64,000 nucleotides of DNA from an uncultured Syntrophales bacterium. Lineage in GTDB: Bacteria > Desulfobacterota > Syntrophia > Syntrophales > JADFWA01. Location: assembly GCA_964454305.1 (NCBI GenBank), contig CAYVXX010000001.1:65464-129463 (forward strand), given 5' to 3'. Shown here one piece after another: positions 10,184 to 32,286 of the stretch (position 1 is the stretch's first letter; each line of letters starts with the position of its first letter). The notes beneath the pieces are model-generated. The model was not told where the DNA came from, made no database searches, and saw nothing but the letters and a program-made list of their open reading frames with translations. Made by a program: the position numbers and the translations under genes.

Positions 10184-11104
10184 TTACACCGCGTAGTCCT
10201 TCGCAAATTCCAGAAACAATTTATGATAATGCATTAAACTGAATTGCTTCTTATAAATCAAATAAAAATGTCTCTGAACGGTACAGTCCTGAATCGGCAC
10301 TTCACAAAGAACCCCCTGCTGTAATTCCCGTTTTATAGCATGAACGGAGAGGATGGAGACACCGAGGCCGGCAATGATCGCCTCTTTGACCGCTTCAGAG
10401 CTTCCCATCTCACAGACACAATTGAACATGGAAAGGCTCCTGTCAGTATTTTTACGCAAGTAGTCTTCCAGGATTTCGCGGGTAGCTGAACCCCTCTCTC
10501 TGATAACAAAGGGGGCTTTTGAAACCTCACCCAGTGTCACATATTTCTTTTTAACCCAGAGATGGTCTGCCGGTACAGCTAAAACAAGTCTGTCCTCCCA
10601 GAGGGATTCGACATGCAATCTTTTGTCAAACGTCTGTTTGCCTATAAAACCTATCTCCGCCTGATCATACAGGATCATCTCCAGGGTTTCTTCGCTATCA
10701 GAGGTTTGAACGTAAGCCCGAATATCAGGAAAAAGCTTTTTGAAATCATTCAAAAGGCGCGGAAGGATATATGTTGCCGGTATGGTGCTGGCACGGATAA
10801 AGATACTTCCTGATTCATTTTCCTTCATCCTTGAAATTTTTTCCTTTGCCTCATCTCTTAATCTGAGGATCTTTTTAGCATAATCATAAAGTATCTTCCC
10901 CTCAGGCGTTAAAAATATTCCCCTGTTTCTCCTGTTAAGAATCCTGGCGTTGACCGATTCTTCCAGATTTTTAATATGCTTGGTCATAGACGGCTGGGTC
11001 AGAAATACCTTCTTGGCAGCTCGGCTGAAGCTTCCTTCTTCAACGATACGGACAAGAGATTCCATTTGTTGAATAGTGATATTCTTGAATTGATCGTAAC
11101 TCAT
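10184..11104 (-). CDS. LysR-family transcriptional regulator, divergent from yedE
   Basis: The N-terminal HTH is MSYDQFKNITIQQMESLVRIVEEGSFSRAAKKVFLTQPSMTKHIKNLE, followed by a LysR substrate-binding domain. Start at Met10 of ORF 10184..11131. Confidence 0.85.
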   Translation of the reverse strand: MSYDQFKNITIQQMESLVRIVEEGSFSRAAKKVFLTQPSMTKHIKNLEESVNARILNRRNRGIFLTPEGKILYDYAKKILRLRDEAKEKISRMKENESGSIFIRASTIPATYILPRLLNDFKKLFPDIRAYVQTSDSEETLEMILYDQAEIGFIGKQTFDKRLHVESLWEDRLVLAVPADHLWVKKKYVTLGEVSKAPFVIRERGSATREILEDYLRKNTDRSLSMFNCVCEMGSSEAVKEAIIAGLGVSILSVHAIKRELQQGVLCEVPIQDCTVQRHFYLIYKKQFSLMHYHKLFLEFAKDYAV

Positions 11105-11131
11105 GGAAAAGTTAACTACCATAAATTTCAA

Positions 11132-11154
11132 TTATAATCAACGAAGAATTATAA
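11132..11154. promoter_or_regulatory. Candidate LysR box TTATAA-N11-TTATAA
   Basis: This dyad fits T-N11-A and lies in the LysR/yedE divergent region. A near copy (TTATAA-N11-CTATAA) is at 23579-23601. Confidence 0.4.
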
Positions 11155-11231
11155 CTATTATGAATTTGACTTATTCCTTAAATTTAGGTAGTTGCATAAG
11201 ACCATCAGATACGGGAAAGGAGACGATGATA

Positions 11232-12311
11232 ATGGCAGGTAAATTCTGGACGCAAAAAACATGGATTATTCTTGGAGGCCTGATTTTAGGTGCACTTGCA
11301 ACCCTGCTCACAAAATGGGGAAATCCTGCAAACATGGGCATCTGTGTTGCGTGTTTTTATCGTGACATTACAGGCGGACTCGGCCTGCACAGGGCAGGAG
11401 TGGTACAGTATATCAGACCGGAAATAATAGGTTTCGTATTCGGCGCTCTTATCTCAGCTTTCGCCTTCAGAGAGTTCAGACCAAAAGGGGGCTCCTCTCC
11501 GATAATACGTTTTCTGTTGGGCGCCTTTTTCATGATCGGCGCGCTGGTTTTCCTGGGCTGCCCAATCAGGGCGCTGATAAGACTTGCAGGTGGTGACCTC
11601 AACGGTATTACCGCTCTCTTAGGGATCATCGTTGGTGCATTTATCGGCATTCAGTTTTTAAAAGGTGGTTATAACCTTGGGCGGGCCGGAAGTGCATCGA
11701 AAATATCTGCCTTGATGATACCACTTATTATGCTTGGCCTTTTTCTCTTGATAGTTTTCAAACCGCATTTCCTCTTTTTCAGTCAAAAGGGGCCGGGTGC
11801 AATGCATGCTCCCATCCTGATTTCACTTATTGCAGGAATCATCGTTGGCGTCATCGCTCAAAAGACAAGAATGTGTTTCGTCGGGGGCTGGAGGGATATT
11901 ATGCTGGTTAGAGACTTCTACCTCTTCAGCGGAATCGCAGCCTTCTTTGTCGGTGTTCTGGTTTGCAATTATGCACTGGGCAATTTTGCTTCAGGATTCT
12001 ACCACTGGGGGTTTGAACATCAACCCGTTTCCCATAATAATCATTTATGGAATTTTCTTGGAATGGTACTGGCGGGCCTGACTGCAACACTTCTGGGTGG
12101 ATGTCCCCTGCGCCAGACAATCCTGGCAAGCGAGGGGGATACAGACGCTGGGATTACCATACTTGGCCTCATTGTCGGCGCTGCCTTTGCCCATAATTTT
12201 TTGCTTGCATCGAGCCCCAAAGGCCCGGGTGAATTCGGGCCCCTGGCAGTAATTATAGGTTTAATATTCTGTTCGGCTGTCGGCGTTTCAATGATGGAAA
12301 GAGGAAAATAA
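11232..12311 (+). CDS. yedE: YedE-family membrane protein (putative selenium/sulfur compound transporter)
   Basis: GNPANMGICVACFYRDITGGLG and a polytopic membrane profile. The RBS AAGGAG lies 9 nt upstream of ATG 11232 (alternative ATG 11226). Confidence 0.75.
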   Translation: MAGKFWTQKTWIILGGLILGALATLLTKWGNPANMGICVACFYRDITGGLGLHRAGVVQYIRPEIIGFVFGALISAFAFREFRPKGGSSPIIRFLLGAFFMIGALVFLGCPIRALIRLAGGDLNGITALLGIIVGAFIGIQFLKGGYNLGRAGSASKISALMIPLIMLGLFLLIVFKPHFLFFSQKGPGAMHAPILISLIAGIIVGVIAQKTRMCFVGGWRDIMLVRDFYLFSGIAAFFVGVLVCNYALGNFASGFYHWGFEHQPVSHNNHLWNFLGMVLAGLTATLLGGCPLRQTILASEGDTDAGITILGLIVGAAFAHNFLLASSPKGPGEFGPLAVIIGLIFCSAVGVSMMERGK

Positions 12312-12312
12312 C

Positions 12313-12849
12313 ATGGTCTTCGGAATAAAAAGAAAGCCCCGCTTTGAGGGAGGAGGTCTTTTTCTCTTTGAAAAGGTAGAAGATGCCATAAAAGCGGAAA
12401 GGGTTCTTAAATCGGCAGACTATATGGTCAAGCTCGTAGCGCCGCCCCCTGCTCTGAGGAAAGGATGCGACCTGGCGGTTGAGATAAATCTGGTTGAGCA
12501 GATGGGTATAGAAAGGCTTTTCAAGCAGAAAGATGTAAACTATATCGAGGTCGTCCCCATGAAGGGTAGCGGAAATCTCCTCGAAATCGTAAAGATAACC
12601 GATTTCGGTGACGCAGTAATGGTAAAGGCAGGTAATATGAAGCTTACATTTGATAAGAATACCGGAAAAATCTTGAACACCTCCGGAGGGGGCTGTCCCG
12701 ATATCCCCTATCTTCATTCCGAACTCATCGATAAAAAACTAACAGATGCACCGAGGCCGAAGGATATAGGCTTTACCTTATGCGCTCTTATGATGGACCG
12801 GGCTTTTCTTGAATGTCTGGATCTCTGGAAAAGTAAGGTGGAAAATTGA
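12313..12849 (+). CDS. DUF3343-like domain protein with a C-terminal Cys-containing extension
   Basis: The N-terminal part, LFLFEKVEDAIKAERVLKSADYMVKLVAPPPALRKGCDLAVEI, resembles the small Se/S-carrier-like DUF3343 fold. The C-terminal part carries SGGGCPDIPY. Confidence 0.5.
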   Translation: MVFGIKRKPRFEGGGLFLFEKVEDAIKAERVLKSADYMVKLVAPPPALRKGCDLAVEINLVEQMGIERLFKQKDVNYIEVVPMKGSGNLLEIVKITDFGDAVMVKAGNMKLTFDKNTGKILNTSGGGCPDIPYLHSELIDKKLTDAPRPKDIGFTLCALMMDRAFLECLDLWKSKVEN

Positions 12850-12850
12850 A

Positions 12851-13744
12851 ATGATGCTCATCTGTGGAACAGTCCCGATAAAGGGCTTCCCGCTGACGCT
12901 GGGAGAGATTAAAACTAAAGCGGGATCATTGGTCATAAATGATCTGGAAATCCCGTGCACACAAGGCACTGCCGCCCTGATCAGCGCCGCATCAGCTACC
13001 ACCTGTCATCTGAACATCACTCCACCCCGGGCATTATTAGTTGGCGACAATGGTGAAGGAAAAGGAAGTAGATTACTTTATGAGTATTTGATAAAGAATA
13101 TTTCCGAACTTTCACCGGCCGTGCTGGTACTTCACTATTGCCTTCCAGTTATGGGCTTGATGAGACGGCTGTGTGAATCTATAGAAAAATGTTCTAAAAA
13201 ACCGATTATGATCGCGGATGCATCTTCGATGTATGCAGCAAAAGCAGCAGGATTGGCGGCAAAATTTGACATCTTCACTCCGGATTTCTGTGAAATGGCC
13301 TTTTTAGCCGACCCCGATGCCACACATCCCGCTTATATCAGCAGGCACCTTTTCGATGCCGATATAACGCAGGCTTCCGAATTGGTAGCTGATGCTTATC
13401 GTAACAATAACGCAGCAAAGATGTTGCTTATTAAGGGAGCGGCTGATTATGTGGTTGAAAATGGTAAAATCCTGGACACTATTACTGCGCCTGATATACC
13501 GGAGCTTGAAGCCATAGGGGGAACGGGTGATACTATTACGGGTATGGTTTCTGCTTTTGTCTATGCTGAACTGGAATTACATCAGGCAGCAATTATTGCA
13601 ACCAGGGCAAATCGTATGGCCGGAAAATACGCACAGGCTACACCGGCTACCAGAATTCACGAAATTACTTCCCAGCTTCCGGCGGTTTTTAAGGATCATT
13701 TATGCGAGTGGAGCGGTATCTGTTATACCGCAGTTCCGGATTGA
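12851..13744 (+). CDS. Ribokinase-superfamily (YjeF_C/ThiM-like) kinase-fold protein
   Basis: LLIKGAADYVV...AIGGTGDTITGMVSAFVY resembles the GG(S/T)GD anion-hole motif of NAD(P)HX dehydratase/HMP/thiazole kinases. Start at ATG 12851, just after the upstream stop. Confidence 0.5.
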   Translation: MMLICGTVPIKGFPLTLGEIKTKAGSLVINDLEIPCTQGTAALISAASATTCHLNITPPRALLVGDNGEGKGSRLLYEYLIKNISELSPAVLVLHYCLPVMGLMRRLCESIEKCSKKPIMIADASSMYAAKAAGLAAKFDIFTPDFCEMAFLADPDATHPAYISRHLFDADITQASELVADAYRNNNAAKMLLIKGAADYVVENGKILDTITAPDIPELEAIGGTGDTITGMVSAFVYAELELHQAAIIATRANRMAGKYAQATPATRIHEITSQLPAVFKDHLCEWSGICYTAVPD

Positions 13745-13827
13745 CAGTTTTAAGATAACAGAAACCGGGTTTTCCCAGTGGCTGAAAGCGAAAGCTATTA
13801 GACAAATAAAGAAGAGAGGTGGTAGAG

Positions 13828-14043
13828 ATGAAGTATGGCGCCAGAAACCAATTGTCGGGAAAGGTAGTCGAAATCAAGAAAGGGACTTTAATGGGACAGA
13901 TAAAAGTAAAGATGCCTGGCGACTATACTATATCGTCGGTAATGACCCTGGATTCCCTGAATGATCTCGGCATAAAAGAGGGAGACAAGGTTAAGGCAAT
14001 AATTAAGGCAGTAAATGTATTGTTGGTAAAAGATGAAATTTAA
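13828..14043 (+). CDS. TOBE/Mop-domain oxyanion-binding protein
   Basis: MKYGARNQLSGKVVEIKKGTLMGQIKVKM...GDKVKAIIKAVNVLL is the typical Mop/TOBE pattern. Confidence 0.75.
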   Translation: MKYGARNQLSGKVVEIKKGTLMGQIKVKMPGDYTISSVMTLDSLNDLGIKEGDKVKAIIKAVNVLLVKDEI

Positions 14044-14063
14044 TAAGTGAGGAGGGAACAGCA

Positions 14064-14285
14064 ATGGTTGAGATTGATGTAAGAGGTTTTGGTTGTCCTA
14101 TTCCCGTGGTGAAAACAAAAAAAGCTATTGAGGGAAACCCGAACGAAGAGATAATTGTCCTTGTAGAAACTGCGGTCTCAAAGGAAAATGTATCCCGGCT
14201 TGCAGAAAGCAAAAAATATTCAGTACGGGTGGAAGAAACAGCCGGGGATGAGTATCGAGTATTGCTTACACCTCCAAAAAACTAA
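14064..14285 (+). CDS. TusA/SirA-like sulfur(selenium)transferase
   Basis: IDVRGFGCPIPVVKTKKAI carries the CPxP active-site motif. Confidence 0.8.
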   Translation: MVEIDVRGFGCPIPVVKTKKAIEGNPNEEIIVLVETAVSKENVSRLAESKKYSVRVEETAGDEYRVLLTPPKN

Positions 14286-14314
14286 GACGCAATTAAGAAG
14301 AGATACCAAGGATT

Positions 14315-14926
14315 ATGGCTAAAGAAATCGATGTTAGAGGCCTCCCCTGTCCTCGACCGGTTATCAGTACCAAAAAGGCACTGGAAGAAATAAAAGAGGG
14401 CACAATTACCGTCCTGGTGGATAATCCGGAAAGTAAAGAGAATGTGCAACGATTTGCTATAAGCCAGGGGTGTGAGGTCAAGGTAGAAGAAAAAGAGGGT
14501 ATCTTTTACCTGCAAATTTCCAAGAGTTACCCTGGTAAGAAAGAAAAGGGATTAGAGGCAGAAGTTGAAAAGGAGTTCGATAAGACAATGAATGCGGATG
14601 TTGTCTGTATTACTACCGACCTGTTTGGAACAGGAAATGAGGAATTGGGAGAAATACTGATGAAGGCGTTCCTTAATACCCTGTGGGACTACCAGCCCCG
14701 ACCGGCCAAGTTATTGTTTATCAACAGAGGCGTAATGCTGACCACCGAAGGTTCTGATGTCCTGGAGGTCTTGGAACTTTTAGAAAAAGAGGGTGTTGAA
14801 ATATTTTCCTGCGGTACCTGCCTGGCCCATTATGGAATAAAAGACAAATTGAGGATCGGCAAAGCAACCAACATGTATGAGATGGTTGATGCCCTCTTAA
14901 CTGCCGGTAAGGTGGTCAATATATAA
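14315..14926 (+). CDS. yedF: YedF-type selenium metabolism protein (TusA-like N-domain + DsrE-like C-domain)
   Basis: IDVRGLPCPRPVISTKKAL at the N-terminus. The ~110-aa C-terminal domain ends in FSCGTCLAHYG. The 203-aa architecture matches YedF. Confidence 0.75.
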   Translation: MAKEIDVRGLPCPRPVISTKKALEEIKEGTITVLVDNPESKENVQRFAISQGCEVKVEEKEGIFYLQISKSYPGKKEKGLEAEVEKEFDKTMNADVVCITTDLFGTGNEELGEILMKAFLNTLWDYQPRPAKLLFINRGVMLTTEGSDVLEVLELLEKEGVEIFSCGTCLAHYGIKDKLRIGKATNMYEMVDALLTAGKVVNI

Positions 14927-14985
14927 GAAGTAACTATCGGACATAAAAGGAATAATCGCCCTGCAAGGGCAATGCAAAAACCCTT

Positions 14986-15145
14986 CCATAAGGAGTTTGG
15001 TCATGTATGAATTTTTCGGCTTTACCTGAGCTGCGATCGAAATTCTACCTGGGTTAGGTAGGCACAGGGCCAAACTGGAAACTCAATTTTCCTCCCTTCA
15101 TTTCTAATCATCACGTTTCAAACCTTTCCGGTCTGGCTCATATGC
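14986..15145 (+). promoter_or_regulatory. Structured leader, copy 1, with embedded sORF MYEFFGFT (15003-15029)
   Basis: About 85-90 percent identical by eye to 23657-23815. The outer stem AGTTTGGTC/GGCCAAACT, the inner stem GAATTT/AAATTC and the hairpin CTACC-N7-GGTAG are all conserved. The RBS AAGGAG lies 7 nt upstream of the sORF. Confidence 0.5.
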
Positions 15146-15630: not shown

Positions 15631-15684
15631 TAAGAGTTTGTGGTCAGCTCACGATAATTTTAAGAAAAATTTCTCCAAAAAGTA

Positions 15685-15731: not shown

Positions 15732-15829
15732 GAGCTAAAAATAGCATAGCCAGTTCTCTTCCATCTAAGAAAGTTGGAAGACTGGTGAAAATTAAAGATT
15801 TGCGTAAAAAACAAAGAAGGGAGGAAATC

Positions 15830-17083
15830 ATGAAACAAATTGAAAATGTTTTAGAATTAAGCAATGCACCTGATTCAAAAGACTATGATAACGTCTTTTT
15901 TATTCAGGTGGACGAGAACAAGTGCCAACAATGCGGTGTATGCGAAACTCACTGCGCGACAGGGGCAATTCAACCAAGGGATGGAAAGGACGGCCCCCGG
16001 ACGGTGGTGGATCCCGCGGCATGCATGAACTGCGCTCAGTGTCTCATCAACTGTCCATACGGGGCAATTTATGAGGGTGTTTCATTTGTAGATGAGATTT
16101 TCAAGGCCCTTAAAGATCCGGATACGATCGTTGTCTCCATGCCCGCGCCTGCTGTTCGTTACGGCCTTGGCGAGCCGTTCGGCTATCCTACGGGGACCTA
16201 TGTGGGGGGGAAATTGTTTGCGGCGCTCCGAAAGCTTGGTTTCGATCGCATCTGGGACAACCAGATGACCGCCGATGTTACCATTATGGAAGAAGGAACC
16301 GAGCTTGTCGGCAGACTTACCGGCAAGATCAAGAAACCCCTTCCGCAATTTACCTCCTGCTGCCCAGGATGGATCAAATTTATGGAGACGTTTTATCCCG
16401 AGCTGTCTCCCCACCTGTCCACATGCAAGTCACCCATCGCTATGCTGGGACCTCTCTCAAAGACGTACGGCGCCGAGGTTTCAGAGACACCGGCAAAAAA
16501 TATGTATACGGTTTCCATTATGCCCTGCGTGGCCAAAAAGTATGAGGGGCTGAGGCCTGAGATGGCTGACAGCGGCTTCAGAGATATTGATGCCACCATA
16601 ACAACCCGGGAGCTTGCCTATATGATCAAGAAGGCCGGCATCGATTTTAAAAGCCTTCCCGACGAGAAACCGGATTTTGAACTGGGAGAATCCACAGGCG
16701 CCAGCACCATCTTCAGCAACAGCGGCGGCGTCATGGAGGCAGCCCTTCGTCTTGCCTACGAGGTCGTATCCGGTAAAAAACTAAAAGATCCTGATATTAA
16801 AGCTGTTCGAACCCATAAAGGCGTCAAAGCAGCCAAGATAAATATTCCCAAATTCGGTGATCTGAGTGTCTGTGTAGTAAGCGGACTTGGCAACACGATA
16901 CCCATTCTTGAGGATATCAAAAAAGGGAAGTGTAAATACCACTTTATCGAGGTTATGGCATGCACTGGCGGTTGTATCAATGGCGGCGGGCAGCCTCTTT
17001 TCCCCGATGCGCGCGAGGCCTCTTTGTTCAGAACAATAATTGCAACAATGAATAGAAGATTTAACATGAGAAGAGTGGCTTAA
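15830..17083 (+). CDS. hydA: Periplasmic [FeFe]-hydrogenase large subunit
   Basis: Two ferredoxin-type Cys clusters are present, along with H-cluster motifs TSCCPGW, MPCVAKKYE and ACTGGCINGGGQP. It is collinear with the Desulfovibrio-type HydA as I recall it. ATG 15830 has the RBS GGGAGG; GTG 15785 is less likely. Confidence 0.9.
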   Translation: MKQIENVLELSNAPDSKDYDNVFFIQVDENKCQQCGVCETHCATGAIQPRDGKDGPRTVVDPAACMNCAQCLINCPYGAIYEGVSFVDEIFKALKDPDTIVVSMPAPAVRYGLGEPFGYPTGTYVGGKLFAALRKLGFDRIWDNQMTADVTIMEEGTELVGRLTGKIKKPLPQFTSCCPGWIKFMETFYPELSPHLSTCKSPIAMLGPLSKTYGAEVSETPAKNMYTVSIMPCVAKKYEGLRPEMADSGFRDIDATITTRELAYMIKKAGIDFKSLPDEKPDFELGESTGASTIFSNSGGVMEAALRLAYEVVSGKKLKDPDIKAVRTHKGVKAAKINIPKFGDLSVCVVSGLGNTIPILEDIKKGKCKYHFIEVMACTGGCINGGGQPLFPDAREASLFRTIIATMNRRFNMRRVA

Positions 17084-17096
17084 CAGGAGGAGTGAC

Positions 17097-17531: not shown

Positions 17532-17543
17532 TTGGAAGGAAAA

Positions 17544-21924: not shown

Positions 21925-22195
21925 GGAAACCCTGACAGAAAAATTTGCCTGCATAGCAGACCTTGTTAAGGAAAAATATGGTGTTAATATATGGTTTGCC
22001 AAGATATTAGGGGAAAGGTGGTCATATATTGCAGGACAGAGAGAAGTGGAAATTTCCCTTCTTCCCTCGGAGCGCACCCGGCTGAATAAACGATTCGGCA
22101 TTGTTTCGTATAGATGGGAGGAAATCCCCGCCAATGAAAGAGAAGCGCTTCTATCACCACTGAAAGAGCAAATAAAGATATATGAACAGGGATGA
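21893..22195 (+). CDS. Hypothetical 100-aa protein translationally coupled between hydG and hydE
   Basis: The ORF overlaps the hydG end by 32 nt and the hydE start by 14 nt, with ordinary amino-acid composition. No motif recognised. Confidence 0.45.
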   Translation: MKMVKGISISKETLTEKFACIADLVKEKYGVNIWFAKILGERWSYIAGQREVEISLLPSERTRLNKRFGIVSYRWEEIPANEREALLSPLKEQIKIYEQG

Positions 22196-23195
22196 AATCT
22201 TATACTATTTGAAAACCTCAGGCACAGATGAAGAACTGTTTCAGAAGGCTGATGAAGTAAGAAAAAAACATTGCGGTGATGAAGTACACATCCGGGGCAT
22301 CATCGAATTTTCCAGCTATTGCTGCCGTAACTGTCTTTATTGCGGACTTCGAAAAGACAACAACAATCTGAACAGATACCGAATGGATGAGGAAGAAATA
22401 ATAGGCCTTGCGCTACAGATCACGTCATTCGGCATCAAAACCATTGTCCTTCAATCGGGTGATGATTTTTATTTCACCCAATCCATGCTCTGCCGGATCA
22501 TAGAGCGCATAAAAGAACATGCTGATGTTGCAATTACCCTGAGTGTTGGGGAGAGACCATTTGAGGACTACAGGGCGTTTAAACTATCTGGAGCAGACCG
22601 CTACCTGCTCAAGCATGAAACAGCCAGTGAAGAGCTGTACAAAAAGTTTCACCCCTACCAGTACCTTAAACACAGGATACGCACTCTGGAATATTTACGG
22701 GAAACAGGATACCAGATTGGAACCGGAAACATTGTAGGACTTCCAGGTCAAAGCATAAATGATCTTTATGCGGATATCCTGCTGCTGAAGGAACTGGATA
22801 CGGATATGTTGTCCATCGGTCTTTTTATTCCTCAGCACGATACGCCTTTGTCACAGGTTCCGCAAGGAGATTTATCATTAGCGTTGAGAGTTCTTGCACT
22901 GGCACGAATCGTGACCAGAGACTCTCATATGCCCGTGACTACGGCAATTGCAACCGCCGATCCTGAAAGGGGGCTTTTCCGTGGATTAAAGACAGGAGTA
23001 AATGTCATTATGCCCGATTTCACGCCTGACCGTCACAGAAAAGATTACACAATCTACGACAACAAGGCACACATAACATTAGAAAAAGCTAAAGAAACAA
23101 TCCTGAAGGCAAAGAGGGTTATTTCATCTCACAAAGGTGATTCTCTCAAATACTCACCAATAAAATTTTCAAAGTCTGTAGGATCAAGAAAATAG
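22182..23195 (+). CDS. hydE: [FeFe]-hydrogenase maturase HydE (radical SAM)
   Basis: CCRNCLYCGLRKDN radical-SAM motif, BioB-like fold, 337 aa. Confidence 0.85.
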   Translation: MNRDEILYYLKTSGTDEELFQKADEVRKKHCGDEVHIRGIIEFSSYCCRNCLYCGLRKDNNNLNRYRMDEEEIIGLALQITSFGIKTIVLQSGDDFYFTQSMLCRIIERIKEHADVAITLSVGERPFEDYRAFKLSGADRYLLKHETASEELYKKFHPYQYLKHRIRTLEYLRETGYQIGTGNIVGLPGQSINDLYADILLLKELDTDMLSIGLFIPQHDTPLSQVPQGDLSLALRVLALARIVTRDSHMPVTTAIATADPERGLFRGLKTGVNVIMPDFTPDRHRKDYTIYDNKAHITLEKAKETILKAKRVISSHKGDSLKYSPIKFSKSVGSRK

Positions 23196-23365: not shown

Positions 23366-23551
23366 TTAGTGTTTAATATAAGTAAGGCCAGCCTCATGGA
23401 AAAATGCATCCAGATTCTTAGTGTACTTGGTCAGAAACGGTTGGGTCAGAAATACCTTCCTGGCAGCACAGCTGAAGTTTCCTTTTTCAACAATAAGGAC
23501 AAGAGATTCCATCTGTTGAATAGTGATATTCTTGAATTGATCGTAACTCAT
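23366..23551 (-). pseudogene. Truncated duplicate of the LysR regulator 5' end
   Basis: MSYDQFKNITIQQMESLVLIVEKGNFSCAARKVFLTQP matches the first ~38 aa of the 10184..11104 protein, then diverges and stops. Confidence 0.8.
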
Positions 23552-23656
23552 AAATAACTTAACTATCATAAATTTCAGTTATAATTAGCTACGAACTATA
23601 ACTATTATGAATTTGACTTATTCCCTAAATTTAGGTAGTCGCATAAAACCATATTA

Positions 23657-23889: not shown

Positions 23890-25167
23890 ATGAGCGAAGA
23901 TTACAAAAGTATGTGGGAAAATTTAGGACTTGATCTTGCGGCGCACGATGCCCTGCTGGAGGTTCTTGGTAAAGGCTATCAGGATATTTATCTCGCCCAG
24001 AAGAACCGGCCGGAGGGAATGGGATATTTTGATTTCGTCATGAGCGAAGTTCACGGCCTGCGAATCAAAGAATTGATGGACGAAAAGGCGGCCGGCCGAA
24101 AGGTAATCGGATCCTTCTGCGTCTTTGTGCCCGAGGAGATCGTGCGGGCTGCCGATGCTACACTGGTTGGTCTTTGTACAGGAGCTGATTTTGCAATGGA
24201 AGAAGTGGAAAAACTTCTGCCCCGCAATACCTGCTCCCTCATCAAGTCGGCCTTCGGATTCAATCTGGCAAAAGTCTGTCCCTACATTGAGTGTGCGGAC
24301 ATGATTGTGGGAGAGAATACCTGCGATGGTAAGAAGAAGTCCTATGAGACACTGAATGCTCTCGTTTCTAATCTCTATGTTATGGATCTGCCACAGGTAA
24401 AATCCGCTGAAGGAAAAGCTCTTTTAAAAGCAGAATATCTCCGCTTCAAGAAGGCTGTTGAAAAACTTACGGGCATAACCATTGATGCGGATAAACTCAA
24501 GAAAGGTATTGAGATCGTCAACAACAAGCGGAAGGTTATTCACAGGCTTTCATGTCTGCGAAAAGCAAACCCGGCCCCAATCTCAGGACTGGACGCACTT
24601 TTGGCTAATCAGGTCTATTTCTATGATGACCCTGTACGTTTTACCGATTCGGTTAATAATATCTGCGACGAACTGGAAGCACGTATCGAGAAGAAGGAGG
24701 GGGTCGTTCCGGAATCAGCTCCAAGAATCTTAATATCCGGCTGCCCCATGGCCGTTCCCAACTGGAAGCTCCCCTGGATTATAGAGACTGCCGGTGCCGT
24801 TATTGTGGGGGAAGAGTCATGTGTGGGTGAGCGGGGCACGCGCAACCTGACCGATGACTCCGGAAATACTCTGGATAAACTTATGGAGGCCGTTGTTGAC
24901 CGCTATTTCAAGGTAGACTGCGCCATCTTCACACCAAATCCGGATCGTTTCGATCATATTGTTGAGATGGTTGAAAAATATCAGGCAGACGGCGTCATCC
25001 ATTACGGTCTGCAATTCTGCCAGCCCTATCTCATGGAAGCCATGCTTGTTGAAAAAGCCCTTGAAGCAAAGAATATTCCCACACTTAGGATTGATACGGA
25101 CTACAGCATGGAGGATGTGGGACAGCTCAAAACAAGAGTCGAGGCGTTTGTTGAAATGATAAGATAG
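23890..25167 (+). CDS. 2-hydroxyacyl-CoA-dehydratase/BCR-superfamily protein, single-subunit (double-cubane-cluster-protein-like)
   Basis: A 425-aa HGD-D-type protein with conserved Cys (FCVFVPEE, GLCTGADF, NTCSLIK, ENTCDGKKK). It is paired with only an activator ATPase, the architecture recalled for DCCP/DCCP-R. Confidence 0.7.
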   Translation: MSEDYKSMWENLGLDLAAHDALLEVLGKGYQDIYLAQKNRPEGMGYFDFVMSEVHGLRIKELMDEKAAGRKVIGSFCVFVPEEIVRAADATLVGLCTGADFAMEEVEKLLPRNTCSLIKSAFGFNLAKVCPYIECADMIVGENTCDGKKKSYETLNALVSNLYVMDLPQVKSAEGKALLKAEYLRFKKAVEKLTGITIDADKLKKGIEIVNNKRKVIHRLSCLRKANPAPISGLDALLANQVYFYDDPVRFTDSVNNICDELEARIEKKEGVVPESAPRILISGCPMAVPNWKLPWIIETAGAVIVGEESCVGERGTRNLTDDSGNTLDKLMEAVVDRYFKVDCAIFTPNPDRFDHIVEMVEKYQADGVIHYGLQFCQPYLMEAMLVEKALEAKNIPTLRIDTDYSMEDVGQLKTRVEAFVEMIR

Positions 25168-25181
25168 GAGAGGCGGCCTGA

Positions 25182-25931
25182 ATGCGACTTGCCGGTATCG
25201 ACATCGGTTCCCGAACCATTGAACTGGTAGTGTTAAACGAAAGAGGGATTATTGAAAGCAAGCAGGCAGAGTCCGGCTTTGATCCGATGACGCAGACAAA
25301 AGAACTCCTTGAAGGGGTTCAGTATGACCGCATTATGGCTACCGGTTATGGACGTCATCTCTTTGAACTTTCTTTTGATGCCCCAACAGTTACGGAGATC
25401 AAGGCCTATGCTGTGGGCGCAAGGTCTCTGTTTCCTGAAGTCAGGACAATACTGGATATCGGAGGTCAGGACTCCAAGGCTATTTCGGTTAGTGATGAGG
25501 GAAAAGTTGTTAAGTTCGAGATGAACGACAGATGTGCAGCCGGGACTGGAAAATTTTTGGAAATTATGGCGACCACTCTCGGCTTTAGTTTAGATCAGTT
25601 TGGTGTGGAGGCACTTCAGGCAACCAAAGATATCCGGATAAATAGTATGTGTACCGTGTTTGCGGAATCGGAAGTCACCTCCCTTGTAGCTAAAGGAGTT
25701 AACCGGCGAGATATCGCCCTGGGTCTGCACCACTCTGTAGTACGCCGGGCCGTGGGAATGTTAAAAAGGGTCTCGGTTAAAGAACCTATCATCTTTGCCG
25801 GGGGCGTGGCAAGAAATCCATGCACGCGCCATCTGTTGGAAGAGGTACTCGGACAAAAGATTGTGATACCTGAAAACCCGCAGATGGTGGGAGCACTTGG
25901 TGCGGCATTGCTCGCAGGTGAAAAGGGATAA
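25182..25931 (+). CDS. BcrAD/BadFG-type activator ATPase (CoA-enzyme activase / DCCP-R-like)
   Basis: The sugar-kinase/actin fold motif AGIDIGSRTIELVV, plus NDRCAAGTGKFLE and MCTVFAESE cluster-bridging Cys motifs. Confidence 0.85.
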   Translation: MRLAGIDIGSRTIELVVLNERGIIESKQAESGFDPMTQTKELLEGVQYDRIMATGYGRHLFELSFDAPTVTEIKAYAVGARSLFPEVRTILDIGGQDSKAISVSDEGKVVKFEMNDRCAAGTGKFLEIMATTLGFSLDQFGVEALQATKDIRINSMCTVFAESEVTSLVAKGVNRRDIALGLHHSVVRRAVGMLKRVSVKEPIIFAGGVARNPCTRHLLEEVLGQKIVIPENPQMVGALGAALLAGEKG

Positions 25932-25989
25932 ATTTTATTTGTATAGGTAAAATGACACTATTTGTTTACATTAAAGAAAGAGGATAAAA

Positions 25990-26880
25990 ATGAATGGCAA
26001 GAAAGGATTTACACTTGGTTTATGTGCTGTATTTATGTTCGCATCGTTGAGCATAGCTACGCCATCTTATGGGGAAAGTGTGCTCAATAAGATAGAGAAG
26101 ACAGGCAAGGTCAATATGGGCTTTCGAGAAGGCTCCGTTCCCTTTGGTTTTATGAATCAAAAAGGGGAATGGGTGGGCTTTGGTCTGGACCTTGGGAAGG
26201 AAATCGTGAAGGCCTTAGAGCAGAAATTTGGAAAAAATATCAAACTGGTCAAGAAACCGATCAATCCCAAGACCCGGATTCCCCTGGTCGTAAACGGTAC
26301 GGTCGATATCGGCATCGGATCAACAACCATTACCCTGGCCAGGGAAGAAGTCGTCGACTTCAGCCTTCCCTATTTTCTCACAGGGACCAGGCTTTTGGTT
26401 CCAAAGGACAGTCCCATCAAAGATTTTCCGGATCTGGCAGGCAAGCGGGTCGGTATGGGTAGCGGATCCACCGCAAATATTAAAGGGATAGACAGAGCAG
26501 TCGCATCGGGTCTTATCAAACCAGCCTGTAAGAAGGTACTCTTTGAAGAGCATAACAAGGGTTTCCTGGCACTGCAACAGGGTAAGATTCATGCCTATTT
26601 CACGGATGCCAGCATACTGGCCGGTATGAAGACAAAAGCCCGGAATCCAGGCAATTGGAAAATTGTTGGTAGATACCTAACATATGAACCCTATGGAATC
26701 ATTCTTCCTGAAAATCAGGGTGAATGGCGTGATTTCGTGAACGCCACGCTTATTAAAATGATTAAAAGCGGCAAGTTTGAGGAAATCTACGACAAATGGT
26801 TCGGTCCGAACGGTGAGGTACCATTGCCTATGAGTGATGAGTACAAGACTTTACTTAAGGCTCTGAGCTATCCGGATTAG
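25990..26880 (+). CDS. Amino-acid ABC transporter substrate-binding protein (family 3, Glu/Asp-type)
   Basis: A signal peptide, then KTGKVNMGFREGSVPFGF...GFGLDLGKEI, the typical SBP_bac_3 pattern. Confidence 0.8.
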   Translation: MNGKKGFTLGLCAVFMFASLSIATPSYGESVLNKIEKTGKVNMGFREGSVPFGFMNQKGEWVGFGLDLGKEIVKALEQKFGKNIKLVKKPINPKTRIPLVVNGTVDIGIGSTTITLAREEVVDFSLPYFLTGTRLLVPKDSPIKDFPDLAGKRVGMGSGSTANIKGIDRAVASGLIKPACKKVLFEEHNKGFLALQQGKIHAYFTDASILAGMKTKARNPGNWKIVGRYLTYEPYGIILPENQGEWRDFVNATLIKMIKSGKFEEIYDKWFGPNGEVPLPMSDEYKTLLKALSYPD

Positions 26881-26927
26881 AGCGCCGAAAAGGCCGAGGC
26901 CCTCATCAAGATCATAGCTTTCTGTGG

Positions 26928-26961
26928 GAAAGGCGTTTCAAAGAATGGACGTTGGCCTTTC
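26928..26961 (+). promoter_or_regulatory. Intercistronic hairpin after the SBP gene
   Basis: GAAAGGC (26928-34) pairs with GCCTTTC (26955-61). This is the usual position for differential mRNA stability or partial termination in ABC operons. Confidence 0.4.
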
Positions 26962-27050
26962 GTGTATTTGTGCAAGAATTGGTTGCAAACAACGCTGTTC
27001 AAAAGTGATTGTTAGCAATTGTCAGTGGTTTCTCCGGTGCCGGATAGGTT

Positions 27051-27779
27051 ATGGATTTTTTTAATTATACCTTTGATTGGAGTGTTCTCTGGCGTCATCC
27101 ATATGGCGGTTTGTTAATCAAGGGTATCCTAACAACCCTCCACTTATCACTACTGGCCTGGATGATCGCCGTGGTATTGGGTGTCACGATTGGCATTTTT
27201 CGGGTTTTACCGTTCCGGTTGGTCCGTTTCGCAGGAAGCGCCTATGTGCAGCTCTTTCGCAACGTACCCTTTCTGGTTCAACTTTTTTTCTGGTATTTCG
27301 CAGCGCCTCTATTACTGCCCAAACCAGCGCAGGAGTGGTTGTACGATAATGTGCCCAATTATTCATATTGGGCCGGAGTTATCTCCCTGGGAACATATAC
27401 AGCTTCTCGGGTAGCAGAGCAGTTTCGTTCCGGTCTCTTGTCAATTTCGCAAGATCAATACCGGACTGCATATTCCACGGGTCTTACAACCTTGCAGACT
27501 TACCGTTACGTCATTGCTCCATATGCCTTCCGAATCATTATACCACCCTTTACTACTGAATTTCTGACTTGTTTTAAAAATTCGGCTCTAACGATGACCA
27601 TAGGCGTAATGGAGATCACACATACGGCCTATTATATCGATTCATTTACCTGGCACGGCCTGGAGACGACCACGGCGGCCAGCCTGGTCTATTTATGCAT
27701 CGCGCTATGCGTTGTGCTCTTTATGTCGTTTATAGAAAAAAGTATTCATATTCCAGGTATGATTGCCAGGGAACAATGA
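27051..27779 (+). CDS. Amino-acid ABC transporter permease
   Basis: A polytopic protein of the His/Glu/Gln/Arg/opine permease type (SISQDQYRTAYSTGLTTLQTYRYVIAP, EAA loop). Confidence 0.85.
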   Translation: MDFFNYTFDWSVLWRHPYGGLLIKGILTTLHLSLLAWMIAVVLGVTIGIFRVLPFRLVRFAGSAYVQLFRNVPFLVQLFFWYFAAPLLLPKPAQEWLYDNVPNYSYWAGVISLGTYTASRVAEQFRSGLLSISQDQYRTAYSTGLTTLQTYRYVIAPYAFRIIIPPFTTEFLTCFKNSALTMTIGVMEITHTAYYIDSFTWHGLETTTAASLVYLCIALCVVLFMSFIEKSIHIPGMIAREQ

Positions 27780-27782
27780 GCT

Positions 27783-28436
27783 ATGGACCTGAGCGTCATT
27801 TCAATAAACTTTAAATTCATGATAGGAGGTCTTGTTCTAACTTTTGAGTTAGCCCTGATAACCATGGCGGGAGGTTTGATAGTCGGCATTATTCTGGCAA
27901 TGGCTCGCCTTTCACCCAGACACTGTCTCTATTATCCGACCACCATCTACATCCATTTTTTTCGCGGTCTGCCTCTGATTTTGGTGATTTTCTGGTTATA
28001 CTTTCTGTCGCCCGTTATTACAGGAAGATCGCTGGGAGCATTCTCCGCTGCTGTCATTTCTTTTATTGTATTTGAGGCTGCGTATTTCGCTGAAATTATA
28101 CGTGCCGGGGTACAATCCGTTTCCCACGGACAGGCCATGGCCGCCTACTCCAGCGGGCTGACCTTTTATCAAACCACACGTTATGTAATTCTGCCGCAGG
28201 CGCTGCATAATATGGTGCCTGCACTGGTCAATCAGGCCGTAATCATTTTTCAGGATACATCCCTGGCCTATGTCATCGGACTGAGAGAATTCTTGCGCCG
28301 GGTCAATTTGGTTGATGCCCGGGAGGCGCGGTCCGTTGAACTCTATCTCTTCGCCGGCTTGGTCTATTTCACAATCTGTTCCGCAGGTTCTCTGGCCAGC
28401 CATCGGCTCGAAAAGCGGCGAGCAAGGAGTTGTTAG
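27783..28436 (+). CDS. Amino-acid ABC transporter permease
   Basis: The EAA-loop region is [28 protein letters not shown]. Confidence 0.85.
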
Positions 28437-28437
28437 A

Positions 28438-29166
28438 TTGATTAAAATTAAAGGCGTGAGCCTGTGGTATGATAAAGGATTTAAAGCGCTTGATAATATC
28501 ACTGAAACAATACAAAGAGGCCAGACAGTCGTCATATGTGGCCCCAGTGGTTCAGGAAAAAGTTCACTGCTCAGGTGTATGAACGGCCTGGAGCGTTTCC
28601 AGGAAGGCGAGATTTTTGTCGATGGAGTATCCGTGCAGGATCCCGAAACAGATATCCATAAACTCCGCTCTGATATCGGTGTGGTATTCCAGCGTTTTGA
28701 GCTCTATCCTCACATGACAGCAATGCAGAATATAACCTTGGCGCCTATCCGGGTTCGTCACAAATCAAAAAGAGAGGCTGAGGAAAAGGCCATGGAGCTA
28801 CTCGAACGGGTGGAGATCCCGGAACAAGCTTTTAAATACCCGGAAGAACTTTCTGGAGGCCAGAAGCAGCGGGTAGCCATCGCCCGAGCCATGGCTATGG
28901 AACCCAAAACTATGCTTTTTGATGAGCCTACTTCGGCCCTGGACCCGGAAATGATTAAAGAGGTCCTCGATGTCATGATTAACCTGGCCAGGGAAGGAAT
29001 GACCATGGTTGTGGTAACTCATGAGATGGGATTTGCCAGGGAAGTGGCCAATGAGATCATCTTTATGGATGAGGGGAGGATCATTGAGCGGGGCGCTGAT
29101 CGCAGCTTTTTTGATAATCCGAAAAATGAAAGGACCCGTCAGTTCTTAAGTCGTATCTTGATATAG
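28438..29166 (+). CDS. Amino-acid ABC transporter ATP-binding protein
   Basis: Walker [10 protein letters not shown], signature LSGGQKQR, Walker [16 protein letters not shown] start at 28438 with RBS AAGGAG is preferred over the long ORF starting at 28312. Confidence 0.85.
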
Positions 29167-29200
29167 AATGATGGGGGTCAAAACCAGAGGGCCGTGTTAA

Positions 29201-30037
29201 ATGAAAAAAAGTGTCAAAATTTCCATATTGTGCGAAGATCAAGCCAAAATGGGATACATGGACAAAATATTTTTAGGCCAACATGGATTTTCTGCTTTTA
29301 TAGAAGCCGGGGAAAAGATTTTATTTGATACTGGTTCTACTGATGTTATTATCTATAATGCAGCTTTGCTTGGAATCAATTTGAATGCCACAGACTTGAT
29401 TGTATTAAGCCATGGACACTGGGATCATGCCAATGGACTGAAAGCACTCCATACAAAGGGAATAAAGAAGAAGCTTTTAGTCCACCCCGGCGCATTTATC
29501 GACAGACGCAAGGCAACAGGGGAATATAACGGCATGTCGTACAACCAGGAGGAAACGGCAGAAAAATTTGATTTGGTCTTATTAAAAGAGCCCTATCAAA
29601 TTTCAGATAATATTTACTTTTTGGGAGAAATCCCCAGGGTCAATGAATTTGAAGCTAAAAAAACTACATTTTTTTACATGAATGAAGGGGAGAAACTTCA
29701 AGATTTCATTATGGATGATACAGCTCTTGCCATAAAAACTGAAAAAGGATTGGTGATTGTTACCGGATGTTCACATGCAGGTATCTGCAATATTGTTGAG
29801 CATGCCAGAGAAGTTACCAATCAGGATAAAGTATATGTTGTTATGGGCGGCTTTCATCTGTTAGGAGATCAGTGTCAATTGCAAAAAACGATCGATTATT
29901 TCCTGAAAAACAGGGTTGAGCATTTGTATCCCATGCATTGCACTGATTTACCATCTCTATCGAGGTTTTATGAAACGTTCGGAATCAAAAAGTTATGCGC
30001 CGGGGATACCATTGAAATCAATCACCGATCATTTTAG
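29201..30037 (+). CDS. MBL-fold metallo-hydrolase
   Basis: The LSHGHWDHANG metal-binding motif. Confidence 0.75.
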   Translation: MKKSVKISILCEDQAKMGYMDKIFLGQHGFSAFIEAGEKILFDTGSTDVIIYNAALLGINLNATDLIVLSHGHWDHANGLKALHTKGIKKKLLVHPGAFIDRRKATGEYNGMSYNQEETAEKFDLVLLKEPYQISDNIYFLGEIPRVNEFEAKKTTFFYMNEGEKLQDFIMDDTALAIKTEKGLVIVTGCSHAGICNIVEHAREVTNQDKVYVVMGGFHLLGDQCQLQKTIDYFLKNRVEHLYPMHCTDLPSLSRFYETFGIKKLCAGDTIEINHRSF

Positions 30038-30119
30038 GGGAAGTGGTGTTTGGTGCACTCCAAGGCTTGCATAGAAACGGGGAGGAGATTCAAATTTTGT
30101 TTTTAAAGGAGGTCAACCA

Positions 30120-31241
30120 ATGATCTATCTTGATTACAATGCCACCACCCCTGTAGCCCCGGAAGTGGCCGAGGCCATGATGCCCATTATCCTGGATAAC
30201 TTTGGAAATCCAAGTAGTTCCTACAATCTGGGAAGGAAGGCAAAGCAGGCGCTGGAAAAGGCCCGCGGCCAGGTGGCCGGACTTTTGGGGTGCGAGCCAG
30301 ACGAGATTGTCTTTACAAGCGGGGGGAGTGAATCAAATAACACAGTACTGAAGGGTGTGGCCGTGAGCCTGCGTGATAAAGGTCGTCACATCATTACAAC
30401 CGAGATCGAACATCCCTCCATATCCAATCCTGCCATATTTCTCATGGAAAATGGCTGGGATGTAACCTTTCTTCCCGTTGATCAATACGGCCAGGTGGCG
30501 CCGGATGATGTGAAAAAGGCCATCAGGAAAGATACAGTGCTCATCACGGTCATGCATGCCAACAATGAGACGGGAACCATCCAGCCTATTCCGGAGATCG
30601 GACATATTTCCAGGGAACAGGGAATACTTTTACATACCGATGCCGCCCAGTCTGTCGGCAAGGTGGAGATCGATGTAGATAACCTGTGTGTGGATTTTCT
30701 AACCGTGGCCGGCCATAAATTATATGCACCCAAGGGAGTTGGTGTGTTATATATACGCAATGGCATAGAGATTGAACCTCTGATTCATGGAGGCGGTCAG
30801 GAGATGGGCCACAGATCCGGCACCGAGAATATCATACTCAATGCAGGTCTGGGGGAGGCATGTGAACTGGCCGGGAGGAACATTAAGGATGACATGATTC
30901 GTCTCGCCGCCCTTCGCGATCGACTCCATGATAAGATAGTCGCGCAAGTTCCCGGAGCAAGGCTGAACGGTCATCCCGAAAACCGTCTTCCGAATACTCT
31001 CAATCTCTCCTTTCCCGGCATGACCGGAAGCGATATCCTGGATGGGATTCCCAGACTGTGTGCATCTACCGGCGCTGCCTGCGAGGACCGTTCTATAACA
31101 ATTTCTCATGTCCTTGCCGCCATGGGTGTCTCCCGGGAGACAGGGATGGGCGCTGTTCGACTTACCCTTGGCAGGCCTACGACTGAGACCGAGGTTGATC
31201 AAGCGGCAGAGTGGATAATAGAAAAGGTGAAATATGGATGA
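30120..31241 (+). CDS. NifS/IscS-type cysteine desulfurase (possible selenocysteine lyase)
   Basis: IYLDYNATTP, the PLP lysine in AGHKLYAPKGVG, SGTEN, and the active-site loop CASTGAAC. The stop overlaps the selD start. Confidence 0.85.
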   Translation: MIYLDYNATTPVAPEVAEAMMPIILDNFGNPSSSYNLGRKAKQALEKARGQVAGLLGCEPDEIVFTSGGSESNNTVLKGVAVSLRDKGRHIITTEIEHPSISNPAIFLMENGWDVTFLPVDQYGQVAPDDVKKAIRKDTVLITVMHANNETGTIQPIPEIGHISREQGILLHTDAAQSVGKVEIDVDNLCVDFLTVAGHKLYAPKGVGVLYIRNGIEIEPLIHGGGQEMGHRSGTENIILNAGLGEACELAGRNIKDDMIRLAALRDRLHDKIVAQVPGARLNGHPENRLPNTLNLSFPGMTGSDILDGIPRLCASTGAACEDRSITISHVLAAMGVSRETGMGAVRLTLGRPTTETEVDQAAEWIIEKVKYG

Positions 31242-32286
31242 CAAGTCAAAAATACGTCTTACGGAAACAGTACATGGTGCCGGGTGAGCCTGTAAGATAG
31301 GTCCGGGAGACCTTGACAAGGCTTTACGTGGACTGCCACTCCAGTCCGATCCGAACCTGATCGTGGGAATAGAAAGTGCTGAGGATGCAGGTGTTTATAA
31401 GTTGAGCGATGACCTCGCCATTATTCAGACACTCGATTTCTTCACACCCATCGTCGACGATCCCTATACCTTCGGCCAGGTTGCTGCGGTCAATTCTCTA
31501 TCAGATGTCTATGCCATGGGGGGGAAACCCATTACGGCCATGAATATAATCTGTTTTCCGATAAACAAGATGGATGTAGGGGTACTCCAGCAGATACTTC
31601 TTGGTGGCCTGGACAAGATGCAAGAGGCGGAAGTAGTTCTGGTCGGTGGACACAGTGTGGAAGATGATGAGCTAAAGTATGGGCTATCTGTTACCGGGAT
31701 TATCCACCCTGACAAAGTGCTTTTCAACAGGGGAGCAAGAGTCGGTGATAACCTTATCCTGACCAAACCTCTGGGAACAGGGATTATCAACACAGCACTG
31801 AAGGGGGAGATGGCCGACGATTATCTGGTAGCCGAATCCATAAAATGCATGCTCACTTTAAATAAAAGGGCTGCGGAGTTGATGGCGGAATTTGCCGACA
31901 TTCACGCGTGTACTGATGTAACCGGTTTCGGGTTTCTCGGCCATGCCTGCGAGATGATAGAAGGAAGCGATGTGGGAATGATTATTGATTCCTCACAGGT
32001 CCCCTACTTCCAGGAAATCCAAGAGCTGGTAGAGATGGGGTTAGTGCCGGGGGGATTGCACAGAAACAGGGAATTTCGCATACATATGATCAAGGCAGAT
32101 CCCGATTGTCCCGCCTGGATGGTGGATGTCCTCTTCGATCCGCAAACTGCCGGCGGTTTACTCATCGCCTTACCTTCAGAACAGGCAGAAAAGCTATTGA
32201 GAAGGATGCATGATGAGGGTATAGAAGAAGCACGCATCGTTGGTGAGATAGTATCGAAACCGAAAGGAGAAATCGTAGTATTATAA
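31234..32286 (+). CDS. selD: Selenide, water dikinase SelD with in-frame UGA (selenocysteine) at codon 18
   Basis: Own translation from ATG 31234: MDDKSKIRLTETVHGAG-U-ACKIGPGDLDKALRGLPLQSDPNLIVGIESAEDAGVY... It is in frame with ORF 31363..32286. The TGA at 31285-31287 sits exactly at the Cys/Sec position of the SelD G-x-G-(C/U)-x-C-K motif. Confidence 0.9.
31288..31322 (+). other. Candidate bacterial SECIS hairpin
   Basis: Lower stem GCCT (31288-91)/AGGC (31319-22). Upper stem AGGTC (31299-303)/GACCT (31309-13), with apical loop CGGGA starting 17 nt after the UGA. Confidence 0.55.

Follow-up and report, generated by a model that had tools for sequence, protein, structure and literature searches.

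A candidate selenium-delivery cassette in Syntrophales and Dehalococcoidia pairs a cysteine carrier-like protein with a separate family of kinase-fold proteins

A gene cassette in a 64,000-nucleotide stretch of DNA from an uncultured Syntrophales bacterium (GenBank assembly GCA_964454305.1, contig CAYVXX010000001.1, positions 65,464 to 129,463; hereafter the window) encodes a YedE membrane protein, a carrier-like fusion of DUF3343 with DUF8182, a ribokinase-fold protein, a Mop/TOBE protein, a stand-alone TusA-like protein, and a two-domain YedF, and it can be compared with several described systems. In the YeeE/YeeD (TsuA/TsuB) system, a YeeE/YedE-family membrane protein reportedly acts with an adjacent TusA-like protein, the substrate being caught on a cytoplasmic cysteine. 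The cassette is similar in that a YeeE/YedE-family membrane protein and a small TusA-like cysteine protein are encoded next door to each other, but it differs in that 1) its YedE fails the TsuA models, 2) a second carrier and an ATP-site enzyme are added, and 3) it leads into SelD, the selenophosphate synthetase. An architecture consisting of an importer, TusA, a DsrE-type domain, and extra conserved proteins is also shared with the YTD cluster, which is confined to Desulfobacterota, Nitrospirota, and Acidobacteriota and whose extra proteins form a DsrEFH type II sulfurtransferase (PMC13490349). In contrast, the extra proteins of the cassette are DUF3343-DUF8182 and the ribokinase fold, and the YTD cluster is set apart by its published description. 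We considered and rejected the possibility that the cassette is a YTD sulfur cluster because the "hypothetical" proteins of YTD are described as DsrEFH type II subunits.

The closest selenium-related precedent is the set of gene families of Lin et al. (2015, Genome Biol Evol, PMC5322559), all four of which are found here, pass their models, and cluster with SelD and a NifS-like/selenocysteine (Sec)-lyase gene. Mining of selD neighbors in 2022 again recovered yedF and duf3343, and as of 2024 neither a dedicated transporter for selenium nor a dedicated pathway for its delivery was established for any organism (PMC11097638). In comparison with the 2015 set, the kinase fold and DUF8182 are here as conserved as YedE, but neither they nor Mop are mentioned in that study or in later reviews. 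Within a literature coverage that is incomplete, the kinase-fold protein is unmentioned in Lin et al. 2015, in the 2022 study of selD neighbors, in the 2024 study, and in a 2026 review, and the term DUF8182 was found in no paper. Hence, a candidate selenium cluster is recognized already, but the partners that are most conserved in it, namely an enzyme with an ATP site and a domain with a cysteine loop, are undescribed. Our reading, which we consider likely although by no means secure, is that the cassette forms an operon under LysR_Se control, the products of which take up selenium and pass it to selenophosphate synthetase.

Gene content and conserved core of the cassette

The six genes lie on the same strand (11232-14926) in the order given above, separated by gaps of 1, 1, 83, 20, and 29 bases, and a lysR gene is divergently transcribed from them (Table 1). 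This is the layout described in an earlier note made from the DNA letters, and the identities that it proposed were borne out. YedE and YedF, which it had taken as selenium markers, each pass a selenium-specific NCBIfam model (TIGR04112 and TIGR03527), and the divergent regulator passes the model of a selenium-linked LysR family (NF040786), as it had suggested. What it called a DUF3343-like protein extended by an SGGGCPD-containing domain is a PF11823 domain (DUF3343/Se_S_carrier, residues 16-81) followed by a C-terminal half that corresponds to DUF8182 (PF26554) and has SGGGCPD at residues 124-130, and the Sec-containing selD and NifS-like gene that it placed downstream are both present. Its selenium reading of the cassette therefore gains support from three curated models and from SelD, SelA, and SelB near related cassettes. 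The DUF8182 call on the window protein rests on the precomputed Pfam annotation of a 100% identical protein (P0121), and PF26554 is also annotated on all 120 listed homologs. YedF exhibits a CPRP motif in its TusA domain and a CGTC motif in its DsrE-like domain. The nearest database relatives of the locus are Syntrophales metagenome-assembled genomes (MAGs).

We then asked which of these genes stay together in other genomes. A scan of one genome per species (185,579 species) with an alignment of the kinase-fold protein as the query yielded 270 stretches encoding relatives. The best 80 of these 270 were retrieved with their flanks (13 Syntrophales/Thermodesulfobacteriota, about 63 Dehalococcoidia/Chloroflexota, two Calditrichia, one Clostridia MAG, and one Moorella), and synteny figures come from 82 loci. 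Counts are based on tblastn with the window proteins, the denominators including only loci with a contig that reaches far enough, and linkage to selenium genes was measured by gene neighborhood. The DUF3343-DUF8182 gene is immediately 5' of the kinase-fold gene in all 81 loci, YedE is 5' of this pair in 69 of 73, TusA or YedF is immediately 3' of the kinase-fold gene in 76 of 80, and SelD is found within 2.5 kb downstream in 31 of 60. The remaining members are more variable, with a divergent LysR in 32/62 loci, a two-domain YedF in 15/60, and TOBE in 4/60. All the divergent LysR proteins from the five loci that were tested pass NF040786, and this holds even for Dehalococcoidia copies that share just 29% identity with LysR of the window. 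Clustering of the remaining neighbors placed SelA and SelB each near the cassette in seven loci, and formate dehydrogenase accessory genes are also among the recurrent neighbors. These counts point to a core unit in which YedE and the carrier fusion are combined with the kinase fold and TusA/YedF, and which is usually followed by SelD. TOBE, the doubled TusA/YedF, and a double-cubane-cluster reductase (see below) are lineage-specific accessories. Cassettes with the carrier-kinase pair occur mainly in Dehalococcoidia and Syntrophales. In 13 loci (e.g., L024:12273-12743), SelD is directly followed by a gene for a 156-residue HAD-like protein that looks like a soluble P-type ATPase domain; there is no copy of this gene in the window.

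The earlier note had included the kinase-fold gene in the selenium system, and three observations bear this out, its invariant adjacency to the carrier gene, three-domain fusions, and a four-gene module that persists at the edge of the family. When a profile of the kinase-fold family was searched against 1.84 billion cluster representatives (E ≤ 1e-3), five of the 347 matches were polypeptides of 514-588 residues with the order DUF3343-DUF8182-kinase fold, in which both GGGCPD and GGTGD are kept. The two fusions that were looked up (L087:6001-7743 and L088:960-2504) both adjoin TusA, and the longer contig, L087, has YedE before TusA. At the family edge, the order YedE-TusA-carrier-kinase is retained around protein P0249. 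In the window, the start of the kinase-fold gene comes 1 base after the carrier stop codon. Taken together, the fusions, the translational coupling, and the adjacency without exception speak for a physical complex between the carrier and the kinase fold. The L087 and L088 fusions are devoid of the C-terminal LCxWSGVC cysteine pair present in the unfused Syntrophales and Dehalococcoidia proteins.

Three cysteines of the carrier are invariant in an alignment of 26 homologs: C52 in the DUF3343 domain, C128 in the N-x-SGGGCPDIP motif, and C157. In the AlphaFold2 model (mean predicted local distance difference test score [pLDDT] of 82), C128 is part of a glycine-rich loop that links a strand to a helix, a predicted placement that resembles that of the CPxP cysteine of TusA. 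The loop is presumably also like the glycine-rich Cys/Sec loop of SelD, the counterpart of which in the window is HGAGUACK. A Foldseek search with the model found no solved-structure match for DUF8182 in the PDB at a reporting limit of E ≤ 1e-3. No carrier variants with TGA in place of a cysteine codon were seen when interrupted tblastn matches were checked, the split matches in L016 and L068 being frameshifts as judged from coordinate offsets.

A small family of kinase-fold proteins with a retained ATP-site motif

The earlier note had recognized a ribokinase-superfamily protein with a GGTGDTITG motif. The motif is at residues 223-231, and the fold is borne out by an AlphaFold2 model of high quality (pLDDT 89.8, predicted template modeling [TM] score 0.90), for which Foldseek retrieved ribokinase, PfkB, the NAD(P)HX dehydratases TM0922/YxkO, ThiD, PdxK, and ThiM with a probability of 1.00, TM scores of 0.50-0.56, and 9-16% identity. 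The protein shares with NnrD/YjeF_C (PF01256/TIGR00196) and ThiM the fold and the KG and GGTGD nucleotide/anion-hole motifs. By analogy, this suggests a phosphoryl transfer that depends on ATP or ADP and may be followed by an elimination. However, it differs from NnrD/ThiM by scores below cut-off, a unique N-terminal half, an N-terminal beta lid, and its obligate pairing or fusion with a cysteine carrier. Sequence alignment to ThiM or TM0922 is limited to the C-terminal KG...GGTGD half.

NCBI names the orthologs "NAD(P)H-hydrate dehydratase." This name is unsupported because the protein scores 35.3 bits on the NAD(P)HX dehydratase equivalog model TIGR00196, under the cut-off of 129.85, and because only its C-terminal half aligns. 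Moreover, the family profile recovers only the 347 cluster representatives mentioned above and does not draw in the large NnrD family. Its score below the curated cut-off, its incomplete alignment, the small size of its family, and its gene context led us to reject filing the kinase fold as NnrD. These proteins are a small separate family that retains the GGTGD ATP-site motif.

Conservation was assessed in 28 representatives sharing less than 50% identity. Invariant residues are G39, D66, H95, Y96, D123, Y128, K131, P144, D145, E148, H159, P160, K195, G196, D199, E220, G223-D227 (GGTGD), and R255, and there is no invariant cysteine in these 28 proteins. The combination of invariant polar residues and no invariant cysteine is what one would expect of an enzyme that has a nucleotide site and a polar pocket for its substrate, and it fits a catalytic role better than that of a thiol carrier.

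Table 1. Coordinates of the cassette, its regulatory region, and related features in the window
Feature	Positions	Strand	Evidence and remarks
lysR (LysR_Se/LysR_Sec_metab), 306 residues	10184..11104	-	NF040786, 289.9 bits (cut-off 250); HTH_1 and LysR_substrate domains
lysR-yedE regulatory region	11120..11176		ATAA-N7-TTAT at 11121-11135; TTATAAT-N9-ATTATAA at 11132-11154; GAATTTGAC at 11162-11170; TATTC at 11172-11176
yedE, 359-residue membrane protein, putative selenium importer	11232..12311	+	TIGR04112 (seleno_YedE), 488.7 bits (cut-off 200)
DUF3343-DUF8182 carrier-like fusion, 178 residues	12313..12849	+	PF11823, 49.4 bits (cut-off 25); PF26554
Ribokinase-fold protein with NnrD/ThiM-like ATP site, 297 residues	12851..13744	+	PF01256, 43.9 bits; GGTGDTITG
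Mop/TOBE molbindin of the "MKYGARN" clade, 71 residues, accessory	13828..14043	+	TIGR00638, 61.8 bits (cut-off 55)
Stand-alone TusA-like protein, 73 residues	14064..14285	+	PF01206, 61.8 bits; CPxP motif as GCPIP
YedF, 203 residues, TusA domain and DsrE-like domain	14315..14926	+	TIGR03527, 230.8 bits (cut-off 110); PF01206, PF02635
Promoter duplicate	23366..23650		Truncated lysR' open reading frame (ORF) of 67 residues at 23366..23569 (- strand), confirmed by tblastn; box copy at 23579-23601 with 1 mismatch
Probable second operon	23890..32286	+	Double-cubane reductase, activase, four-gene amino-acid-type ABC transporter, MBL-fold protein, NifS-like protein, Sec-SelD; NCBIfam matches
NifS-like gene	30120..31241	+	NCBIfam match
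Sec-selD	31234..32286	+	In-frame TGA at 31285-31287 within HGAG*ACKIGP

Regulation, a probable second operon, and accessory genes

The earlier note had singled out a TTATAA-N11-TTATAA box between lysR and yedE. This box is present and non-random since it is part of a TTATAAT-N9-ATTATAA dyad, which has a chance expectation of 0.00 in 100 shuffles of the window and is unique in the window apart from the copy described below, but it is only half conserved in relatives. In an alignment of seven promoter copies, taking in four Syntrophales-type relatives and the internal duplicate of the window, two relatives (L044 and L068) have a degenerate left arm, and the invariant motifs are an upstream CATAAA, TATAACT in the right arm, GAATTTG, and the GAATTTGAC...TATTC block. 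Better kept is an overlapping ATAA-N7-TTAT dyad, which has the T-N11-A form of LysR-type sites and is found in all seven copies, with one mismatch in L044. The CAT of CATAAA (11120-11122) could also be read as an in-frame alternative lysR ATG (at 11122) that gives a 312-residue protein, as on public contigs; since the same motif is out of frame in relatives, CATAAA is more likely to be regulatory than a start codon. A promoter/terminator consensus scan of positions 10900-15900 gave matches no commoner than in shuffled sequence, and we therefore claim no promoter or terminator from it.

The lysR-yedE regions in Dehalococcoidia (L080, L058, L050, L047, L075, and others) are conserved and exhibit a TTATCTT-N5-AAGATAA repeat of the ATC-N9-GAT type over the likely -35 element and a second inverted repeat just past the -10. 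Several of them have long leaders with conserved blocks such as AATCATCAAG, for which there is no Rfam match. A scan of the window and nine related loci at Rfam gathering thresholds assigned no RNA family to the leaders and detected only tRNAs and tmRNA.

A stretch of about 220 bases, made up of the lysR 5' end and the complete yedE promoter, has a duplicate at 23430-23650, with roughly 90% identity in a pairwise alignment. L005, the closest relative, has no such duplicate at this place. The duplicate is therefore recent and does not count as separate support for a function of the box. It looks like a recent promoter capture. Nine co-directional genes lie 3' of it, and this run is probably a second operon of the same LysR_Se regulon, the shared promoter sequence arguing for co-regulation of both operons. 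The in-frame TGA in its selD gene indicates that the host uses selenocysteine.

The double-cubane-cluster reductase (NF040772) and activase genes (23890-25931), which open this run, have homologs within the cassette itself in three related loci (L042:10939-12929, L057:7421-9402, and L013:12814-14801). These are three of the four loci that have no upstream YedE, and the reductase and activase may represent an alternative, reductive selenium supply. The same two families were linked by STRING to YedE and YedF as well as DUF3343 in Slackia (PMC5322559).

The 240-nt leader of the reductase gene (23651-23889) contains a mini-ORF (ATG at 23672, MYEFFGFT, TGA stop) followed by a hairpin. We dropped the idea that this leader is a Sec-sensing attenuator since its folding is no better than that of shuffled sequences (z = -0.52). 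The region between the two selenium operons (15785-23195) encodes a [FeFe]-hydrogenase similar to group A (15785..17083) and at least one radical S-adenosylmethionine gene (22182..23195), possibly with hydrogenase maturases between them, and this synteny is common to the window and L005.

The remaining accessory is the Mop/TOBE protein. The identity assigned to it in the earlier note held, but conserved membership of the cassette did not since it is present in only 4/60 loci and is a relative of ordinary molbindins. It is a single Mop domain of about 70 residues, which aligns over its full length with MopII of Clostridium pasteurianum (1GUG, E = 1.3e-13) and also aligns with Azotobacter ModG. 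The ARN, SS/T, and KA positions, the role of which in binding is known from ModE/Mop structures, are kept, and the Ser of SARN is a Gly throughout the clade. The resulting MKYGARN start, in place of the SARN of canonical molbindins, characterizes all the cassette-linked TOBE copies and the close homologs that were inspected among 811 homologs found in all. In comparison with MopII/ModG, the cassette clade is thus Mop-like over its whole length but is distinguished by this signature and by its repeated location beside selD or NifS-SelD. Of six members examined outside cassettes, three are located just 3' of a gene for a 737-residue NifS-SelD fusion and three have no nearby selenium gene. The former three (L090:1617-5210, L091:990-5210, and L092:2659-5210) probably represent one lineage, and in two of them a gene for a 308-residue Fer4_16 protein lies between the fusion and Mop. 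In L002, the TOBE gene comes after SelD. A remnant encoding only the C-terminal 31 residues of TOBE is found between the kinase-fold and TusA genes in L010 (L010:2545-2637), which suggests that the accessory was lost in that lineage. TOBE is thus an accessory, with a link to selD that is suggestive although not exclusive.

Proposed selenium pathway and its alternatives

The pathway that we propose for the cassette would start with YedE importing a selenium species, selenite or another oxyanion being the most probable, which a TusA-type protein would trap by analogy with YeeE/YeeD. The kinase-fold enzyme, in complex with the glycine-rich C128 loop of DUF8182, would then use ATP or ADP for the phosphorylation of a hydroxyl, either on selenite itself or on the first adduct that it forms with a thiol. 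Release of the phosphate through displacement by a carrier thiol would drive the capture of selenium on the carrier cysteines, following a phosphorylate-then-eliminate logic like that of NAD(P)HX dehydratase, and could make the capture of nanomolar selenium effectively irreversible. TusA/YedF would relay the bound selenium, from which SelD would make selenophosphate. Which species is transported, in which direction it flows, and what the ATP-dependent step does chemically are inferred, and this applies equally to the "activation or binding step" put forward in the earlier note. More tentative than the overall pathway, and in our view rather doubtful in its specifics, is the proposal by analogy that 1) the NnrD-like protein and the DUF8182 loop form a hitherto unrecognized ATP-dependent selenium-activating enzyme, which would phosphorylate a Se-bound hydroxyl or a carrier perselenide, so that protein thiols catch trace selenium and feed SelD, and 2) the MKYGARN Mop protein is a selenium-oxyanion-binding molbindin.

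Several points weigh against this pathway. Selenium transport activity has been demonstrated for no YedE member, the substrate is not established in any organism, and a yedE deletion in Methanococcus caused no clear selenium phenotype (PMC11097638). DUF3343 proteins are not selenium specific and have no selenium-specific subfamily (PMC5322559). SelD adjoins the cassette in only half of the loci, and the loci examined are the 80 closest of about 270 matches plus only three more distant contexts. Finally, the presumed substrate-binding part of the kinase-fold protein, its N-terminal half, matches nothing solved by sequence, so that the hydroxyl phosphorylation step stands only on the analogy of fold and motif.

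Some of these points would suit a role in sulfur rather than selenium metabolism, in which the cassette would bring in thiosulfate or zero-valent sulfur and pass it on as persulfide, like YeeE/YeeD or the YTD cluster. The absence of a selenium-specific DUF3343 subfamily fits such a role, there are relatives that handle sulfur for each of YedE, TusA, DsrE-like, and DUF3343 proteins, and YedE-TusA-DsrE clusters have been implicated in sulfur disproportionation in Desulfobacterota (PMC12998232, PMC13490349). We nevertheless consider it unlikely because the window YedE, which is far above the cut-off of the selenium model (489 bits), scores only 44.1 bits on NF052577 (cut-off 400) and 16.7 bits on NF041049 (cut-off 645), the TsuA/YeeE thiosulfate models, the regulator passes LysR_Sec_metab, and the recurrent neighbors are SelD, SelA, and SelB. 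In addition, the extra proteins in YTD are described as a DsrEFH type II complex and not as a kinase fold or DUF8182. Improbable too, in our estimation, is a function in selenium detoxification or sequestration, with any excess buffered on carrier thiols and oxyanion-binding proteins. Such a function would agree with the possible role of YedF in Se detoxification suggested by Lin et al. (PMC5322559), with a TOBE molbindin suited to storage, and with a direction of YedE transport that is not established, but it is at odds with the tight, translational coupling of the cassette to SelD, SelA, and SelB, with the induction of yedE in selenium-starved Methanococcus (PMC11097638), and with the hosts being Sec users in low-selenium anoxic habitats.

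The other two alternatives each start from a single gene. That the kinase-fold gene encodes a standard NAD(P)HX dehydratase, or else a thiazole/vitamin kinase, that merely happens to be located in the operon is very unlikely; the PF01256 score, a weak ThiM match, and the NCBI ortholog name would be in keeping with it, but a TIGR00196 score of 35 bits against 130, alignment of only the C-terminal ATP-site half with solved members, a family of only 347 cluster representatives, carrier synteny in 81/81 loci, and the carrier-kinase fusions are not. To molybdate/tungstate homeostasis, which the Mop/TOBE gene might suggest, we give even less credence. Although the TOBE protein is closely related to the molybdate-binding MopII and ModG, and genes for formate dehydrogenases, which need both molybdenum or tungsten and Sec, recur near related cassettes, the rarity of TOBE (4/60 cassettes, with a mere remnant in L010) and the lack of ModABC or molybdenum-cofactor genes within the cassette speak against it.

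Uptake of selenium and its delivery to selenophosphate synthetase thus remain our preferred reading of the cassette, which bears on the question of how selenium is specifically acquired and delivered to this enzyme without the release of toxic free selenide. The compact, widely conserved four-protein module upstream of SelD offers a small defined set of proteins for reconstitution. Our findings also correct the annotation of hundreds of database entries that read "NAD(P)H-hydrate dehydratase," and they link selenium metabolism with a double-cubane reductase as well as with a clade of molbindins. If the proposal is true, ATP-dependent selenium activation would supply the dedicated step that has been missing between the uptake of selenium and the synthesis of selenophosphate.

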